Source of the DNA: Candidatus Multivoradales bacterium
GTDB lineage: Bacteria; Acidobacteriota; Thermoanaerobaculia; Multivoradales; J023
Assembly (NCBI GenBank): GCA_965248925.1
Contig: CBDFLE010000006.1
Coordinates: 1,600,001 to 1,664,000 of the forward strand
Reading direction: 5' to 3'
DNA length: 64,000 bases
Shown here: piece by piece, positions 58,911 to 64,000 of the stretch
Position numbering within the stretch: the stretch's first letter is position 1
Layout of the letters: each line of letters opens with the position of its first letter
Position numbers and translations under genes: made by a program
The notes under the pieces: model-generated
Told to the model about the DNA's origin: nothing
The model's database searches: none
The model's input: only the letters and a program-made list of their open reading frames with translations

Positions 58911-59372
58911 CTAATCGAAAGTCTCTAGGATCTCAGCCGGCGCTTGCTCCGGCGACTCGAAGGGATTCACCACCCGCAGCTGACCGAAGAGCTGGCCGTG
59001 GTTGAGATCCTCGGTCAGCAGCACCTGGCAATCGCAGATCTGGGCGGCCGCGATGATCAGCGCATCCCACCACGAAAGGGAGTGGCGCTCGTACTGAACC
59101 CAAGCTCGTTCCATGACCGCAAGATCGATCGGCAGGGCTCGCCAAGAGGTGAGGTCGCGAATCAACTGCTGGGCCTGCCCGGCATCCATCCCAGGCTTCA
59201 GCTTGTGGGTGAGGGTGACGTAAAGTTCCTGCAACACCTGATAGCTAAGATGCCCCGAACGTTGGCGCCAAAGAAGGCTGAGCCAGTCGGCGGCCCTCGG
59301 CTGCTTGGCAGGCTCGCTGGAATCATGGCGATAGACCAAGACGTTGGTGTCAACGAAGACTGGCACGGTCAT
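58911..59372 (-). CDS. PIN-domain toxin
   Basis: VFVDTNVLVY, SYQVLQELY, LSWWDALIIAAA..LLTEDL.HGQ..VVNPF. Confidence 0.92.
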   Translation of the reverse strand: MTVPVFVDTNVLVYRHDSSEPAKQPRAADWLSLLWRQRSGHLSYQVLQELYVTLTHKLKPGMDAGQAQQLIRDLTSWRALPIDLAVMERAWVQYERHSLSWWDALIIAAAQICDCQVLLTEDLNHGQLFGQLRVVNPFESPEQAPAEILETFD

Positions 59373-59592
59373 GGAGAGACTCCCGAGTCGGGTAGCGAAC
59401 TTCTGGCCGTTTCAACCCGACGGGCTCCGCGGATAGGCAGCGATCCATCGCCAACTGATACTCGTCGCCGCGCCGCATCCAGCCGGAGATTCGCTCACTC
59501 AGCCATCGCGAGACACTGCGATCATCCTCAGCAGCTCGAACTCTGAGCCACAGAGCAACTTCCTCTGGCAATGTGATGGTGACGTTCTTCAT
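59350..59592 (-). CDS. CopG/RHH antitoxin
   Basis: MKNVTITLPEEVALWLRVRAAEDDRSVSRWL..YPTRESLHDR. Confidence 0.85.
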   Translation of the reverse strand: MKNVTITLPEEVALWLRVRAAEDDRSVSRWLSERISGWMRRGDEYQLAMDRCLSAEPVGLKRPEVRYPTRESLHDRASLR

Positions 59593-59598
59593 CACAAA

Positions 59599-59627
59599 AA
59601 ATTAGTGCAACACGAGTTCCGTGTCAA
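59599..59627 (-). promoter_or_regulatory. Promoter of the PIN TA operon
   Basis: Minus strand TTGACA-17-TAATTT with CAC..GTG dyads, a few nt before the start codon. Confidence 0.55.
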
Positions 59628-59651
59628 GATAAGTTACAAAAGAAACTCGCC

Positions 59652-59727
59652 GACGCCTCCGGCGTCTTGCTGGCTCCGCCAGCAGGGCCGCTCCGCGACC
59701 CCGCGCTCCGCGCCTGGGCTACCGCCC
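59652..59727 (-). repeat. Tandem hairpins downstream of DGR VR1
   Basis: Sense strand: GGGC-GGTA-GCCC, GCGC-GGA-GCGC, GGGTCGC-GGA-GCGGCCC, TGCTGGC-GGA-GCCAGCA, GACGCC-GGA-GGCGTC. Confidence 0.85.
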
Positions 59728-60624
59728 TGAGCGCAGACCCTGACCTAGAGCAAGGCGGAAGCCCAAGAAGTCGTAGCGGAGCGACGGGTGCCAGTAGTAG
59801 CGGTAAGCCGCACGCACGTAGCGAGCGTCGTAGTTCCACGCACCCCCGCGGATGACCCGGTTGGCGCCTTCTTCAGGGCCAGTTGGGTTTCTCTGCTCAA
59901 CCGACTCGTAGCCGCCATACCAGTCGTGGCACCATTCCCAGACATTGCCAAGCGTGTCGTAGAGCCCCCAGGGGTTAGCCTCCTTCTCAGCCACCAGCCG
60001 AGTCCCCGCCCGGTGGTGGGGATGTTGCTTCTCCGGCCAGTTTGAAGAATCTTCACCCTCCGTGAGATCAAAGTCGACGCCACTGTTGCCGCCATACCAA
60101 CCGATATCATGGAGTAGCGGAGCATCGTTCGCACCGACGATTTCCAGGTCGCCGGCGTAGGTCGCGGTCTCAGTACCGGCGCGGCAAGCGTGCTCCCACT
60201 CTGCTTCGCTGGGCAAACGAAGCTCTAGTGCCGAGACTCTCCGGTTGAGAACTTGCAAGAACTCCTGGCAATCTTGCCAGCTCACCTGTTCTACCGGCCG
60301 CTGGAGCGATACAAAGCGGCTCGGATTTTCGCCGTCCATGACCGCTAGCCAAAGTGCCTGCGTACAGGGGGTGTCGGCCAGCCAGAATCCCGCGGTCAGG
60401 GTGACTCGATGCCGAATTTCGTCGTCATCGCGGCCTTGTTCCTCCTCTGGCGAGCCCATCCAGAATCTACCGGGCCGAATCCACCGTAGACGTTGCTCCA
60501 CCCCACCTATTTCAAAAACCACAAAAACCCCGTACCGATCCTCGCCCCAGGCTGTGGCCCAGCTAGGCGGGTTCCCAGAAGAGAGTGGGTGGTCCAGGAA
60601 ATCAGCCATGGAATTGGGGATCAA
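59719..60624 (-). CDS. DGR target 1: stand-alone FGE-sulfatase (CLec-fold) protein
   Basis: FWMGSP, RLPSEAEWEHACRAG, NPWGLYDTLGNVWEWC, RVIRGGAW, GFRL; C-terminal VR. Confidence 0.93.
   Translation of the reverse strand: MIPNSMADFLDHPLSSGNPPSWATAWGEDRYGVFVVFEIGGVEQRLRWIRPGRFWMGSPEEEQGRDDDEIRHRVTLTAGFWLADTPCTQALWLAVMDGENPSRFVSLQRPVEQVSWQDCQEFLQVLNRRVSALELRLPSEAEWEHACRAGTETATYAGDLEIVGANDAPLLHDIGWYGGNSGVDFDLTEGEDSSNWPEKQHPHHRAGTRLVAEKEANPWGLYDTLGNVWEWCHDWYGGYESVEQRNPTGPEEGANRVIRGGAWNYDARYVRAAYRYYWHPSLRYDFLGFRLALGQGLRSGR
59745..59870 (-). repeat. DGR variable repeat VR1
   Basis: 126 bp; 11 differences from TR, all at TR adenines. Confidence 0.95.
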
Positions 60625-60771
60625 GAATCAGCCGCCGGTGAGCTTTCGCGGCTGCTGCTGCTGCCCTACTAACACACCGGCGGCCGTCACCATGTTTGCT
60701 GCCCACATAGCAAGGGTAAGCAGACTGGACGGCGGCCTGGTCAGTGGCGGGCACTGCGGCCCGCGTCTGCG

Positions 60772-60897
60772 CTAGAGCAAGGCGGAAGCCCAAGTTGTCG
60801 TTGCGGTTCGACGGGTGCCTGTAGTTGCGGTAAGCCGCACGCACGTTGCGTGCGTTGTTGTTCCACGCACCCCCGCGGATGACCCGGTTGGCGCCTT
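60772..60897 (-). repeat. DGR template repeat (TR)
   Basis: 126 bp with nine AAC codons (GANRVIRGGAWNNNARNVRAAYRNYRHPSNRNDNLGFRLAL), intergenic just downstream of the RT. Confidence 0.95.
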
Positions 60898-60929
60898 TTT
60901 GGCCGCGCCCGAGTTGGCAATCATATCGC

Positions 60930-61961
60930 CTAGGCATCAATGCTACCTCGCTGGACGAGTTCTTCGCGGCGCCAGGCTCGCGCCTCGGCATGCGCAGTCA
61001 CGGCATAGACAGAGGCATAGCCGGCCTGCAACTGCTGACCGTCGATCAGACCGGCAAGATAAGCGGTCTCGAAACGTCGCCTGGCAGTGGCATAGCGCCG
61101 CCGACGGCGGCGGGATAGCAGCAGCCGGTCGCCGAAGATCCGAAAGCCGAGCAGCGGCAGACCGCGGCAGCTTGGTTGGACCTGCCAGTGTGGCTTGATC
61201 GTCAGGTGCAGAGCCTGATCTGCATGTGCCACGGCCTGCTGAGCCGCCGCCCGCACAACGGCTGGGCTGTTCCCCCAGATCGCCACATCGTCCATGTATC
61301 GCACCATCGCAACACCTTGCCCCTCCAACAGAAGGCGATCGAGGCTTGCCAAGTAGAGGTTGGCGAAGTGCTGCGAAGTCAGCGCGCCGATGGGCAACCC
61401 TCGAAGCCCTTCTCTGGATCCTTGGTCAGTCGCCGGAGATAGATAGCTGGCGATGATCCGGTCGATCAAGTGCAGCGTTGCCGCACCCTTGATACGCCGC
61501 CTGAGCTGGGAGCGCAAGATAGCATGATCGATACTGGCAAAGTAGGCTCGCACGTCGAGCTTGACGAACCAACCATAGCGAGCCGTATGACACTGCGCCC
61601 GCTTTACAGCTGCCAGCGTACCCTTGCCCAGCCGGCAGGCAAATGTATCGTCCACCAGCAGTCGTTCGAGTACCGGGCCTACCCGGGCCATGAGCGCATG
61701 GTGAAGCACTCGCTCGCGAAAACAAGGCGCCTGGATAACTCGCCGCTTGGGATCATGAATGGTGAACGAACGCCTCGATCCGACCCGGACCCGTTGCTCT
61801 AGTATTTCGCGCCCGAGACGTGCCAGCTCTGACAGAAGATTCGCCTCGAAGGCCCGAACCTCCGGCTGCTGGCGCTTGCCCTTGGCGGCACGCCAAAACG
61901 CTGCACCGAGGTGTTCTAGCGAGGCAACATCCTCTAGTTGCACCAGCGCCCGCTTAGTCAT
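60930..61961 (-). CDS. DGR reverse transcriptase
   Basis: DPKRRVIQAPCFRERVLHHAL, FACRLGKG, KLDVRAYFASIDH, GLPIGALTSQHFANLYL (DGR-type GxxxSQ), RYMDD; ATG 61961 after GGAGG. Confidence 0.95.
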   Translation of the reverse strand: MTKRALVQLEDVASLEHLGAAFWRAAKGKRQQPEVRAFEANLLSELARLGREILEQRVRVGSRRSFTIHDPKRRVIQAPCFRERVLHHALMARVGPVLERLLVDDTFACRLGKGTLAAVKRAQCHTARYGWFVKLDVRAYFASIDHAILRSQLRRRIKGAATLHLIDRIIASYLSPATDQGSREGLRGLPIGALTSQHFANLYLASLDRLLLEGQGVAMVRYMDDVAIWGNSPAVVRAAAQQAVAHADQALHLTIKPHWQVQPSCRGLPLLGFRIFGDRLLLSRRRRRRYATARRRFETAYLAGLIDGQQLQAGYASVYAVTAHAEARAWRREELVQRGSIDA

Positions 61962-62430
61962 GCCGCCCCTCCTGGTCCGCGGCTGAATTCCAGGCGGCAC
62001 GCAGAGCCTCCACGAACGCGGCACCGTATTTCTCAGCCCGTTTGGCGCCCACTCCTGCCAATGCTTCCAGCTCACTGGGGGTCTGCATTCGCTGGCGCAC
62101 CATGGCAGCCAACTGCGCATTAGTGAAGACAGAATAGGGTGGTACGCCGTCTCGCTGCGCAAGCTCCTTACGGAGCTTTCTCAGCTCGGCAAAGACAGTG
62201 AAATCTGCGCTCGACAACACTTCTCTATAGTCGATCTTCCCTTTTCTGATCGCCGGAATTGCTGCTGAACTCTCCTGATAATTGATGCATAACGCCCAGA
62301 AAGCAGCCCCATCGCCCACTACTAGATGGCGCTTGACCGACAGCACCCGATGGCTGCCGAGAAAGGCATTCAGCTCCGCCTCGGCGGTATCGGGAGCGAG
62401 CGCCGGCACCCCGAAGAATTTCATCTTCAT
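61954..62430 (-). CDS. HRDC-domain DGR accessory protein
   Basis: ELNAFLGSHRVLSV..FWALCINY; KIDYREVLS..FAELRKLRKELAQRDGVPPYSVFTNAQLAAM..GVGAKRAEKYG; overlaps both the target 2 stop and the RT start. Confidence 0.88.
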   Translation of the reverse strand: MKMKFFGVPALAPDTAEAELNAFLGSHRVLSVKRHLVVGDGAAFWALCINYQESSAAIPAIRKGKIDYREVLSSADFTVFAELRKLRKELAQRDGVPPYSVFTNAQLAAMVRQRMQTPSELEALAGVGAKRAEKYGAAFVEALRAAWNSAADQEGRHD

Positions 62431-64000
62431 TTTTCCGCGGCCTCCGGCCGCGAAGGGTCGCGAAACGTACTCGCCCCTGGAATCTCTGCATCCGGAGGGC
62501 GCTCCGCGCCCGCGGGCTCCGCCCGCTCTGCTTGCGGCTCCGCCGCCTTGAGCGCACCCTGACCTAGAGCAAGGCGGAAGCCCAAGTAGCCGCTGCGGAG
62601 CGACGGGAGCCTGAAGCGGCGGTAAGCCGCACGCACGCCGCGTGCGAAGTCGTACCACGCACCCCCGCGGATGACCCGGCCGGCGCCTTCTCGTGGAACT
62701 CCGTAGCTAGCGCTCCAATGATCCTGACACCACTCTTCGACATTCCCTAACATGTCGAACAGTCCCCAGGGATTCGGAGGCTTCTCAGCAACTGGATGGG
62801 TCTCTCCCCCGCTATTGTGGTGGTACCAGGCGACTTTCTCGATTTCTGGTGCTCTACCTTCCTCATCGATTGTCAGCCCACCCTGGTAGGTTGCCGTCTC
62901 GGTGCCCGCGCGACAGGCGTACTCCCACTCGACTTCCAGAGGAAAGCGACATTCGAGGCCGGGATTCTGTTCGTGCAGCGTCTTGAAGAAGCTGTCGCAA
63001 TCTTCCCAGCTGATCTTCTCTACGGGGCGGTCGTCCGCGGGGAAGTTGCTTGGATTGTTGCCCATAACAACTTGCCACAGACGTTGGGTGCAGGGGGTAT
63101 CGGCCAACCAGAACCCGCGCCGGATCACTTCGAGATGGCGGGGCCCCTCATCGTCCCAACGACCGGGCTCATCTTCGGGAGACCCCATCCAATAGCGCCC
63201 TGGCGGAATCCAGCGCAGGCGTTGACTGACTCCCTTGACTTCGAATGAAGCCCACAGACCGAAGCGATCCCGGCCCATGGCACTCGCCCAAGGGGGACGG
63301 GTGACCTGGTGGAGGGTGGCCTCGGTGCGATCGGTGCGGAGGATCACAGCCGGTGCCGAAGGCAGAAGAATCTCAGTGGACTCTGAGAGCAGCACCGGCA
63401 CCGGTACGGCCTCGGGCTCGGCGCCCCCGACCACGCGGTCGACACTGTCAACCGCCGTCAAGAAGCTGCCAGGGGGAACCGTTCTGAGAGCCGGCGCAAA
63501 GCGAATCGACTGACAGTAGTGAAAGACCTGCCAGCGTTGCAGGCGACCCTGAGAATCACTAGGAGGAATCCGATCCGAACCTTCAGAAGTCGAGGCTTCG
63601 GCATCCCCCGTCGCCCTCCAGGCACGCCAGAGGTAGGGACGTAGCGATTCGTTCTGCCACAGGGAACTCGGATGCCGGTCGCGGAGCGCCCGGCCGGCGA
63701 AAGCACCTACCGCGTCGACTACCTCTTCGTCGGTGGCCCCGCCACCGTCGACGGTCTCAGCCACCCGGCGCCACAGCAAGTGGGCAGCACCGATCTCCGC
63801 CTCGCTGAGGGTGCCTGGCGGCAGCTCGGCTTCGCTGTCGAAGGCCAGGACCTCATCGAGCCAAATCTCCTTGGCCTTGCCTGCCCGCCACGCCCGCATA
63901 GTCTGCACCACGGCTGTCTTGAGGCGCGGCGCCAGGCGGCGAAACTTCTGCTGTAGCCGGGTTCTGAGCGGCCGCGCGAGGTCTGCTGAATCGGCCAGCC
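62427..64000 (-). CDS. DGR target 2: multidomain protein with C-terminal FGE-sulfatase (CLec) domain; N-terminus outside the window
   Basis: YWMGSP, EWEYACRAG, NPWGLFDMLGNVEEWC, RVIRGGAW, GFRL; the frame stays open from 63911 to the window end. Confidence 0.9.
   Translation of the reverse strand, partial: LADSADLARPLRTRLQQKFRRLAPRLKTAVVQTMRAWRAGKAKEIWLDEVLAFDSEAELPPGTLSEAEIGAAHLLWRRVAETVDGGGATDEEVVDAVGAFAGRALRDRHPSSLWQNESLRPYLWRAWRATGDAEASTSEGSDRIPPSDSQGRLQRWQVFHYCQSIRFAPALRTVPPGSFLTAVDSVDRVVGGAEPEAVPVPVLLSESTEILLPSAPAVILRTDRTEATLHQVTRPPWASAMGRDRFGLWASFEVKGVSQRLRWIPPGRYWMGSPEDEPGRWDDEGPRHLEVIRRGFWLADTPCTQRLWQVVMGNNPSNFPADDRPVEKISWEDCDSFFKTLHEQNPGLECRFPLEVEWEYACRAGTETATYQGGLTIDEEGRAPEIEKVAWYHHNSGGETHPVAEKPPNPWGLFDMLGNVEEWCQDHWSASYGVPREGAGRVIRGGAWYDFARGVRAAYRRFRLPSLRSGYLGFRLALGQGALKAAEPQAERAEPAGAERPPDAEIPGASTFRDPSRPEAAEK
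62436..62546 (-). repeat. Tandem GGA-triloop hairpins downstream of DGR VR2
   Basis: Sense strand: GCGGC-GGA-GCCGC, GCGGGC-GGA-GCCCGC, GGGCGC-GGA-GCGCCC, CGCGGCC-GGA-GGCCGCG. Confidence 0.85.
62564..62689 (-). repeat. DGR variable repeat VR2
   Basis: 126 bp; 17 differences from TR, all at TR adenines. Confidence 0.95.

Follow-up and report, generated by a model that had tools for sequence, protein, structure and literature searches.

How the mutagenized cDNA of a diversity-generating retroelement (DGR) finds and enters its target gene is the main unsolved step of mutagenic retrohoming, and this question is raised by a locus of Candidatus Multivoradales bacterium. The window analysed here is a stretch of 64,000 nucleotides (assembly GCA_965248925.1, contig CBDFLE010000006.1, positions 1,600,001 to 1,664,000 of the forward strand), and a complete DGR of the HRDC type occupies its 3' end on the minus strand, in the order target gene 2, HRDC accessory gene, reverse transcriptase (RT) gene, template repeat (TR) and target gene 1. 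In DGRs, the IMH (for 'initiation of mutagenic homing'), a sequence that ends a variable repeat (VR) on its 3' side, marks where mutagenic copying into the target begins, and a hairpin after the IMH marks the VR, and not the template, as the recipient of the mutagenized cDNA. The sole target signal dissected so far is one hairpin in one phage. Behind the VRs of the present DGR lie instead arrays of short hairpins with a GGA loop. Based on the genome-wide and comparative evidence presented here, these arrays are real, specific to DGR targets and conserved. We consider it probable, though by no means certain, that they are cis-acting target-site elements, that is, a multiplied, three-base-loop version of the post-IMH hairpin which is specific to one clade of DGRs.

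The VRs were located by blastn of the TR against the whole genome. VR1 (59745-59873, 129 nt aligned to the TR with 12 mismatches) and VR2 (62564-62689, 126 nt, 17 mismatches) lie in the window; a third, VR3 (C6:1847039-1847164, 126 nt, 15 mismatches), is on the same strand 184 kb outside it. Hairpins were read on both strands; the DGR has its sense strand on the minus strand, to which all coordinates below refer. Behind VR1 stand a 4-bp stem (59703-59713), a stem of seven pairs, one of which is a T.G wobble (C.A when read on the opposite strand; 59685-59701), a 7-bp stem holding the heptamer GCGGAGC (59668-59684) and a 6-bp stem (59652-59666) whose T-rich tail allows a terminator-like fold as well. 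These four are separated by only 0-1 nt, so that about 62 nt are nearly all hairpin. The VR2 array comprises stems of 5 bp (62534-62546), 6 bp (62512-62526), 6 bp (62497-62511) and 7 bp (62436-62452), the last ending 5 nt before the HRDC start codon. All eight hairpins have a GGA loop on the sense strand closed by a 5'C-G3' pair, at the coordinates and with the 4-7 bp stems proposed in a preliminary description of the window, the wobble in one stem being the only addition. The further hairpin that it drew over the TAG stop codon of target gene 1 is also present (59716-59727, 4-bp stem, GGTA tetraloop), and fits the published GRNA consensus.

VR3 plus its own array spans C6:1846947-1847164. This array again has four GGA hairpins: two perfect 6-bp C-closed ones, one with a T.G wobble and one 6-bp G-closed hairpin. 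Over the three VRs, the closing pair is 5'C-G3' in 11 of 12 hairpins and the exact GCGGAGC heptamer occurs in 9 of 12, which bears out a suggested link to the d(GCGNAGC) mini-hairpins; the first GGA loop lies 19-35 nt past the end of the TR/VR alignment. The stems are GC-rich and differ among arrays and relatives. Their description as unrelated is mostly right, but the VR2 and VR3 arrays are partly homologous, and in one VR2/VR3 hairpin pair the outer base pair differs by a compensatory change. As had been claimed, no such array follows the TR: its flank contains no GGA triloop hairpin and carries a different structure (60747-60764, 6-bp stem, 6-nt loop).

To what extent are such arrays peculiar to DGR targets? 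The genome comprises 7.98 Mb at 62% G+C, and was scanned for perfect triloop hairpins with stems of at least 4 bp, a cluster being defined as at least 3 hairpins with gaps of at most 120 nt. Among 44,202 perfect triloop hairpins, the C(GGA)G class (159, rank 104 of 256 classes) and the C(TCC)G class (153, rank 107) together account for 312, about one per 25 kb. The only clusters of at least three C(GGA)G hairpins in the genome are the VR1 and VR2 arrays. Likewise, GCGGAGC heptamers number 1,967 over the two strands and cluster (at least 3, gaps of at most 60 nt) at exactly three places, the flanks of VR1, VR2 and VR3. The clustering of GGA hairpins at the VRs is thus far beyond chance and not a common repeat, and the expectation that the arrays mark only VR 3' ends in this genome was borne out. 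Thirteen other arrays of at least three triloop hairpins with the same loop were found, none with unrelated stems as in the VR arrays. Eight of these are tandem repeats of one near-identical unit; the remaining five were read as overlapping registers of single GC palindromes, as judged from spacings of 1-23 nt and not from printed sequences. Arrays of 3-7 nearly identical palindromes with a GTGCC-W-GGCAC core, 20-39 nt apart, were also observed at C5:1397785, C6:765093, C6:1089147, C6:1090017, C6:2177227 and C6:2177416. The sole other multi-copy GGA palindrome has a 9-bp stem and is found within 12 copies of an apparent insertion-sequence transposase gene (e.g. C6:327, C6:1685, C4:265075), unrelated to the DGR arrays.

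The same association extends to relatives. A first set of 44 RT loci from species-representative genomes included 31 with detectable TR/VR pairs, yielding 43 VRs; perfect triloop hairpins were scored on the sense strand in the 200 nt downstream. The 46 VR flanks obtained when the three of this genome are added contain 98 such hairpins, of which 41 are GGA and 2 TCC, and the 32 TR flanks contain 35, none of them GGA. A second, metagenomic set (43 loci, 27 with TR/VR pairs, some being near-copies of the first set) gave 16 GGA among 54 hairpins downstream of 30 VRs and a single, A-closed GGA hairpin among 31 downstream of 27 TRs. The arrays are absent after the TRs of these sets (GGA in 0 of 32 and 1 of 27 TR flanks). 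In an RT tree of 56 rows, the trait is concentrated in one 24-row clade (SH-aLRT 99), with 17 of 24 rows inside against 1 of 32 outside; by record titles, its members include Myxococcota, Gemmatimonadota, Planctomycetota, Burkholderiaceae, Accumulibacter and a methanotroph. Considering 21 non-identical loci of this clade with 35 VRs, the window being excluded, GGA triloops reach 6.12 per kb in the 200 nt after VRs versus 0.111 (sense) and 0.105 (antisense) elsewhere, i.e. they are 55 times denser, with a median offset of 40.5 nt after the VR. At least one GGA hairpin follows 22 of the 35 VRs, two being found at 8, three at 3 and four at 2. Since 13 of the 35 VRs thus have two to four, tandem arrays recur within the clade and this genome stands at its upper end. 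The VRs of Accumulibacter are followed by 4, 4 and 3 hairpins, those of Gemmatimonadota-type loci by 3. Stems range from 4 to 14 bp in the relatives overall (11-14 bp in Accumulibacter), and the view that structure rather than sequence is conserved holds across several phyla, the loop being kept while the stems vary. In some Myxococcota-type relatives, short direct repeats rich in CCAAG or AACCAG were seen between the VR and the GGA hairpin (L001:5369-5450, L004:5413-5490, L004:8102-8170, L086:1557-1620).

The preliminary description had proposed the array as a possible target-marking code for this HRDC-type DGR, perhaps read by the HRDC protein; as a trait of HRDC-type DGRs in general it is not supported. 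The HRDC gene is directly upstream of the RT gene in 33 of the 44 genome loci, including Bacteroidota and Anaerolineae relatives that have no GGA hairpins. Because these HRDC-bearing relatives lack them, the GGA trait is a property of an RT sub-clade and not of all HRDC-type DGRs. When the flanks of Bacteroidota-type loci (L018-L035, L065-L090) were inspected by eye, without a count, many had a longer outer stem behind the VR that encloses a short GC stem, whose A-rich loop measures about 5-11 nt. The trait is not exclusive to the HRDC type either. The genome contains two further DGRs, L045 (C5:142000-151000) and L046 (C6:4811000-4821000), both of the Avd type (helix-turn-helix gene, bAvd, TR, RT) and each with two opposed target genes, which in L045 are of the NACHT-FGE type. 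One long C-closed triloop hairpin lies behind three of their four VRs (12 bp, AGA; 8 bp, GGA; 11 bp, GCA) and none at the fourth; a C(GGA)G hairpin therefore also follows one VR of an Avd-type DGR. Within the same genome, a single long hairpin per VR in the Avd-type elements contrasts with four short ones per VR in the HRDC-type element.

What would such arrays do? Mini-hairpins of the C(GNA)G type are very stable with only two or three stem pairs, bind single-stranded DNA-binding protein (SSB) poorly and can extrude from supercoiled DNA at physiological superhelical density. When the target is unwound by a replication fork, supercoiling or transcription, the sense strand past the IMH could fold into a string of hairpins, and this folding would replace re-annealing or coating with SSB. 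The string would hold the IMH and VR open, or stall lagging-strand synthesis ahead of them, and the antisense cDNA could then pair with the exposed sense strand and be incorporated. Several short hairpins may take the place of one long one. The loop may in addition be read by a factor, candidates being the RT, the HRDC protein or a host protein, as suggested by the strong preference for GGA over other stable GNA loops: 124 distinct triloop hairpins after VRs include 41 GGA, 8 GCA, 3 GAA and 3 GTA. Stem length also varies with the closing pair, C-closed GGA hairpins having a mean stem of 5.1 bp (n=26) and G-closed ones of 9.1 bp (n=13; Mann-Whitney p=0.0007, for related sequences that are not fully independent). 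Short C-closed and long G-closed stems, together with the GGA preference, fit DNA-level stability combined with loop reading.

Several known systems invite comparison. The target of phage BPP-1, as described by Guo et al. 2011, requires a hairpin after the IMH, whose stem sequence is free and whose loop is sequence-dependent with the sense consensus GRNA; it was detected in supercoiled DNA and affects the efficiency of cDNA integration, not its site, with an optimum stem of 7-10 bp, and DGR target inverted repeats are placed there 4-34 bp downstream of the VR/IMH and not behind the TR (PMC3240598). The arrays resemble it in their position just after the VR, in their GC-rich stems with structure kept and sequence free, and in a conserved sense-strand loop that starts with G and ends with A; an equivalent GGA triloop hairpin is lacking after the TR, which is nonetheless followed by another hairpin. 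They differ in number (four at VR2 and VR3, or five at VR1 with the GGTA hairpin, instead of one) and in loop size (3-nt GGA instead of 4-nt GRNA, only the stop-codon hairpin having GGTA); moreover, the accessory protein is HRDC and not Avd, and the TR has its own, different hairpin as part of a structured RNA. A second parallel is with the d(GCGNAGC) mini-hairpins, reported to be very stable with two G-C pairs, far above the RNA version, nuclease-resistant and poorly bound by SSB (PMC13037366); a C:G closing pair is reported to add about 2-3 kcal/mol to d(GNA) loops (PMC3201870). The 9 heptamer-bearing hairpins of the 12 share its layout, in which a G-C pair supports the C:G pair that closes the GNA loop; the properties themselves were defined on synthetic oligonucleotides.

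The closest analogy for a protein-read loop is offered by the early promoters of phage N4, whose hairpins have short stems and 3-base loops with 5'G and 3'A closed by C:G, both features being needed; according to the account in PMC4496689, they extrude at physiological superhelicity and are read base-specifically, SSB melting only the hairpin of the complementary strand. Like the arrays, they thus display C:G-closed G-purine-A loops, and the N4 system combines a strand-asymmetric, protein-read loop and extrusion from supercoiled DNA with three copies on one genome (PMC4496689). Unlike the arrays, these hairpins serve the virion RNA polymerase as promoters, with a defined start site and further bases of the stem kept constant; nothing here points to such a polymerase or role. 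Finally, group IIC introns, DGR-related retroelements, recognise a GC-rich single-stranded DNA terminator stem-loop by structure, as discussed in PMC3240598; according to that discussion loop sequence matters little in the introns, whereas here the loop is conserved and the hairpins are multiplied.

The orientation of the targets with respect to replication is also compatible with the proposed scheme. Cumulative GC skew places the origin near C6:2.65 Mb; from 0 to 2.65 Mb, the lagging strand is the plus strand. Since the three targets, at 1.66 and 1.85 Mb, are encoded on the minus strand, they are co-directional with replication, and their sense strand, which bears the GGA loops and is the partner of the cDNA, is in all three cases the lagging-strand template. 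In a reconstituted system, DGR editing is reported to be favoured when the strand complementary to the cDNA is the lagging-strand template (PMC12875486). We infer that a lagging-strand polymerase would meet the array before the IMH and VR, and that a pause there would leave the VR single-stranded.

A number of points weigh against arrays acting as target-site elements in DNA. Perfect GGA hairpins (stem of at least 4 bp) are missing behind 13 of the 35 VRs of the clade, and the element is therefore not obligatory, or is weaker, at these VRs. The stems of 4-7 bp in this genome fall short of the 7-10 bp optimum of BPP-1. The DNA folding energy of the VR1 and VR2 arrays is only modestly better than that of shuffled sequences (z = -2.51 and -1.37, respectively), a measure that is not informative because GC-rich shuffles fold well too. 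The test of strandedness by wobble pairs is small, with seven hairpins (three of G.T type, one of A.C type and three with other mismatches). Paralogous targets can inherit their flanks, and given the partial homology of VR2 and VR3 the three arrays are not fully independent. The co-orientation of three out of three targets is weak evidence, since the majority of genes have this orientation and two of the targets come from a single cassette; the targets of the Avd-type DGRs of this genome are found in both orientations. The arrays are also transcribed, so that a role at the RNA level is conceivable.

One extension of the target-site reading concerns the template RNA. Downstream of the TR, 170 nt make up a conserved three-helix RNA (60600-60771, minus strand), with compensatory changes in 23 of 24 predicted pairs among 20 sequences. 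Its first hairpin is the 60747-60764 structure mentioned above, which directly follows IMH*, the TR counterpart of the IMH. In 14 of 20 relatives this first RNA loop, 4-6 nt long, shows GGA, whereas the window itself has another loop. A single factor might therefore recognise GGA loops on both the template RNA and the target. Within the clade, no association was observed between GGA in the RNA loop and GGA after the VR (11 with both, 3 with the RNA only, 4 with the VR only, 2 with neither). The GGA hairpins would then be single-stranded DNA mimics of the first stem-loop of the template RNA: an RT-HRDC particle that binds this RNA loop would dock on the string of mini-hairpins on the lagging-strand template and tether its fresh cDNA by the IMH, and the number of hairpins would set the competition among targets, including the one 184 kb away. 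We regard this version as doubtful; if true, template-RNA mimicry would provide a sequence-specific, multivalent address label for retrohoming. An Rfam scan of 59000-64000 returned one irrelevant sub-threshold match (17.1 bits versus a gathering score of 48) and no family on the hairpins or on the RNA downstream of the TR.

That same RNA loop can also be cited for an alternative in which the hairpins act not in DNA but in the target transcripts, by stabilising or processing 3' ends, by termination or by binding RT-HRDC. The arrays lie on the transcribed sense strand, T.G is the form that both wobble pairs of this genome take on it, a terminator-like fold is possible for the last VR1 hairpin with its T-rich tail, and HRDC domains are also found in the RNA enzymes RNase D and Rrp6. 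However, the VR2 array is internal to the operon, where target gene 2 lies on one side of it and the genes for HRDC and RT on the other, and it lacks a T-tract; terminators follow only a minority of DGR inverted repeats in the survey data of PMC5758913. The C:G-closed GNA loop is moreover a DNA-specific stability motif whose RNA counterparts are described as much less stable (PMC13037366), the way in which stem length trades off against the closing pair agrees with DNA energetics, and the BPP-1 hairpin was physically shown in DNA (PMC3240598). An action at the RNA level thus appears unlikely. Intrinsic terminators were considered as an identity for the hairpins in their own right and discarded, only one of nine hairpins fitting (59664-59648, minus strand, T-rich tail) and none at VR2.

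The hairpins might also be incidental to coding, the codons GCG-GAG-C specifying a C-terminal tail rich in Ala-Glu-Pro/Arg. In targets 2 and 3, indeed, no stop codon interrupts the frame over the first three hairpins, which share one phase and read as AEP and AER repeats; the target 2 frame crosses the whole array to a tail with these motifs, which has a homologous counterpart in target 3, and ends in a TGA that overlaps the HRDC start codon (ATGA, 62427-62430). The VR1 array, which lies entirely past the stop codon of target gene 1 with its hairpins in mixed phases, contradicts a coding repeat, and the stop codon of relative L003 also precedes the hairpins (VR frame, by eye). Coding leaves unexplained the complementary stems, the compensatory VR2/VR3 change and the 11-14 bp stems of Accumulibacter, and is a highly improbable origin.

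Two classes of element share features with the arrays, as GGA in hairpin loops is a hallmark of CsrA sites and repetitive extragenic palindromic (REP) elements are GC-rich palindromes at gene ends. That generic REP/BIME-like repeats or CsrA/Rsm sites should lie near these genes by chance is scarcely credible: the hairpin class is not over-represented and clusters solely at VRs, the genome-wide scans did not show such clusters to be common at unrelated gene ends (their being so is what the preliminary description had named as refuting its proposal), the only other multi-copy GGA palindrome is confined to the 12 apparent insertion-sequence genes, the loops have 3 nt where CsrA loops are larger and of ANGGA type, and no CsrA homologue (PF02599) was found in this 96.9%-complete genome by a search that matched 3 of 14 control genomes (E. 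coli, B. subtilis, T. maritima).

That a hairpin follows the IMH is already known, and GC-rich inverted repeats were catalogued in 34% of 372 DGRs (PMC5758913); new here is the multi-copy, three-base-loop form in one RT clade. Tandem arrays are not known to have been described before: a full-text literature search, with subscription journals and supplementary tables outside its scope, gave no DGR paper on tandem arrays, triloops or mini-hairpins at targets, and a preprint on coevolutionary mining touches on DGR RTs only in passing. An RT clade spread across Myxococcota, Gemmatimonadota, Planctomycetota, Betaproteobacteria and others would use a distinct, sharply defined signal, namely GGA triloops that frequently stand in tandem. 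Its match to a DNA mini-hairpin motif associated with poor SSB binding and extrusion from supercoiled DNA makes this signal interpretable in physical terms, and it lies on the strand to which, according to recent work, the cDNA has to gain access. Experiments could vary the loop, the number of copies, the closing pair and the orientation. The arrays also provide a simple rule for finding remote DGR targets, the scan for heptamer clusters having returned all three targets and nothing else in 8 Mb.

The remaining features of the cassette are all on the minus strand. Target genes 2 (62427-63911, with its frame open through the array) and 1 (59719-60624, with its stop codon before the GGA array) both encode an FGE-sulfatase / C-type-lectin fold, and VR3 is the end of a stop-to-stop frame of 807 residues, whose domains are an Mrr-type nuclease, a Ser/Thr kinase and an FGE-sulfatase. 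The TR (60772-60900) is preceded by the RT gene (60930-61961, RVT_1) and by the HRDC accessory gene (61954-62430), whose product combines a small N-terminal beta-alpha-beta-beta domain with an HRDC domain. The model of this protein is confident (pLDDT 93.3) and, in a fold search, its HRDC half resembles the HRDC domain of E. coli RecQ (1wud, 42% identity); the same search gave no confident match for the N-terminal domain and hence no clue to hairpin reading. Four public runs of one sample contain the locus in contigs, none of those listed being an RNA run; no variant letters were seen at the VRs in these contigs, such contigs breaking at TR/VR repeats and dropping rare variants. Directly beyond the VR1 array, at 58911-59595 on the minus strand, a weak ribbon-helix-helix match (81 aa) and a PIN-domain protein (153 aa) form a small gene pair, probably a toxin-antitoxin pair of the VapBC type.

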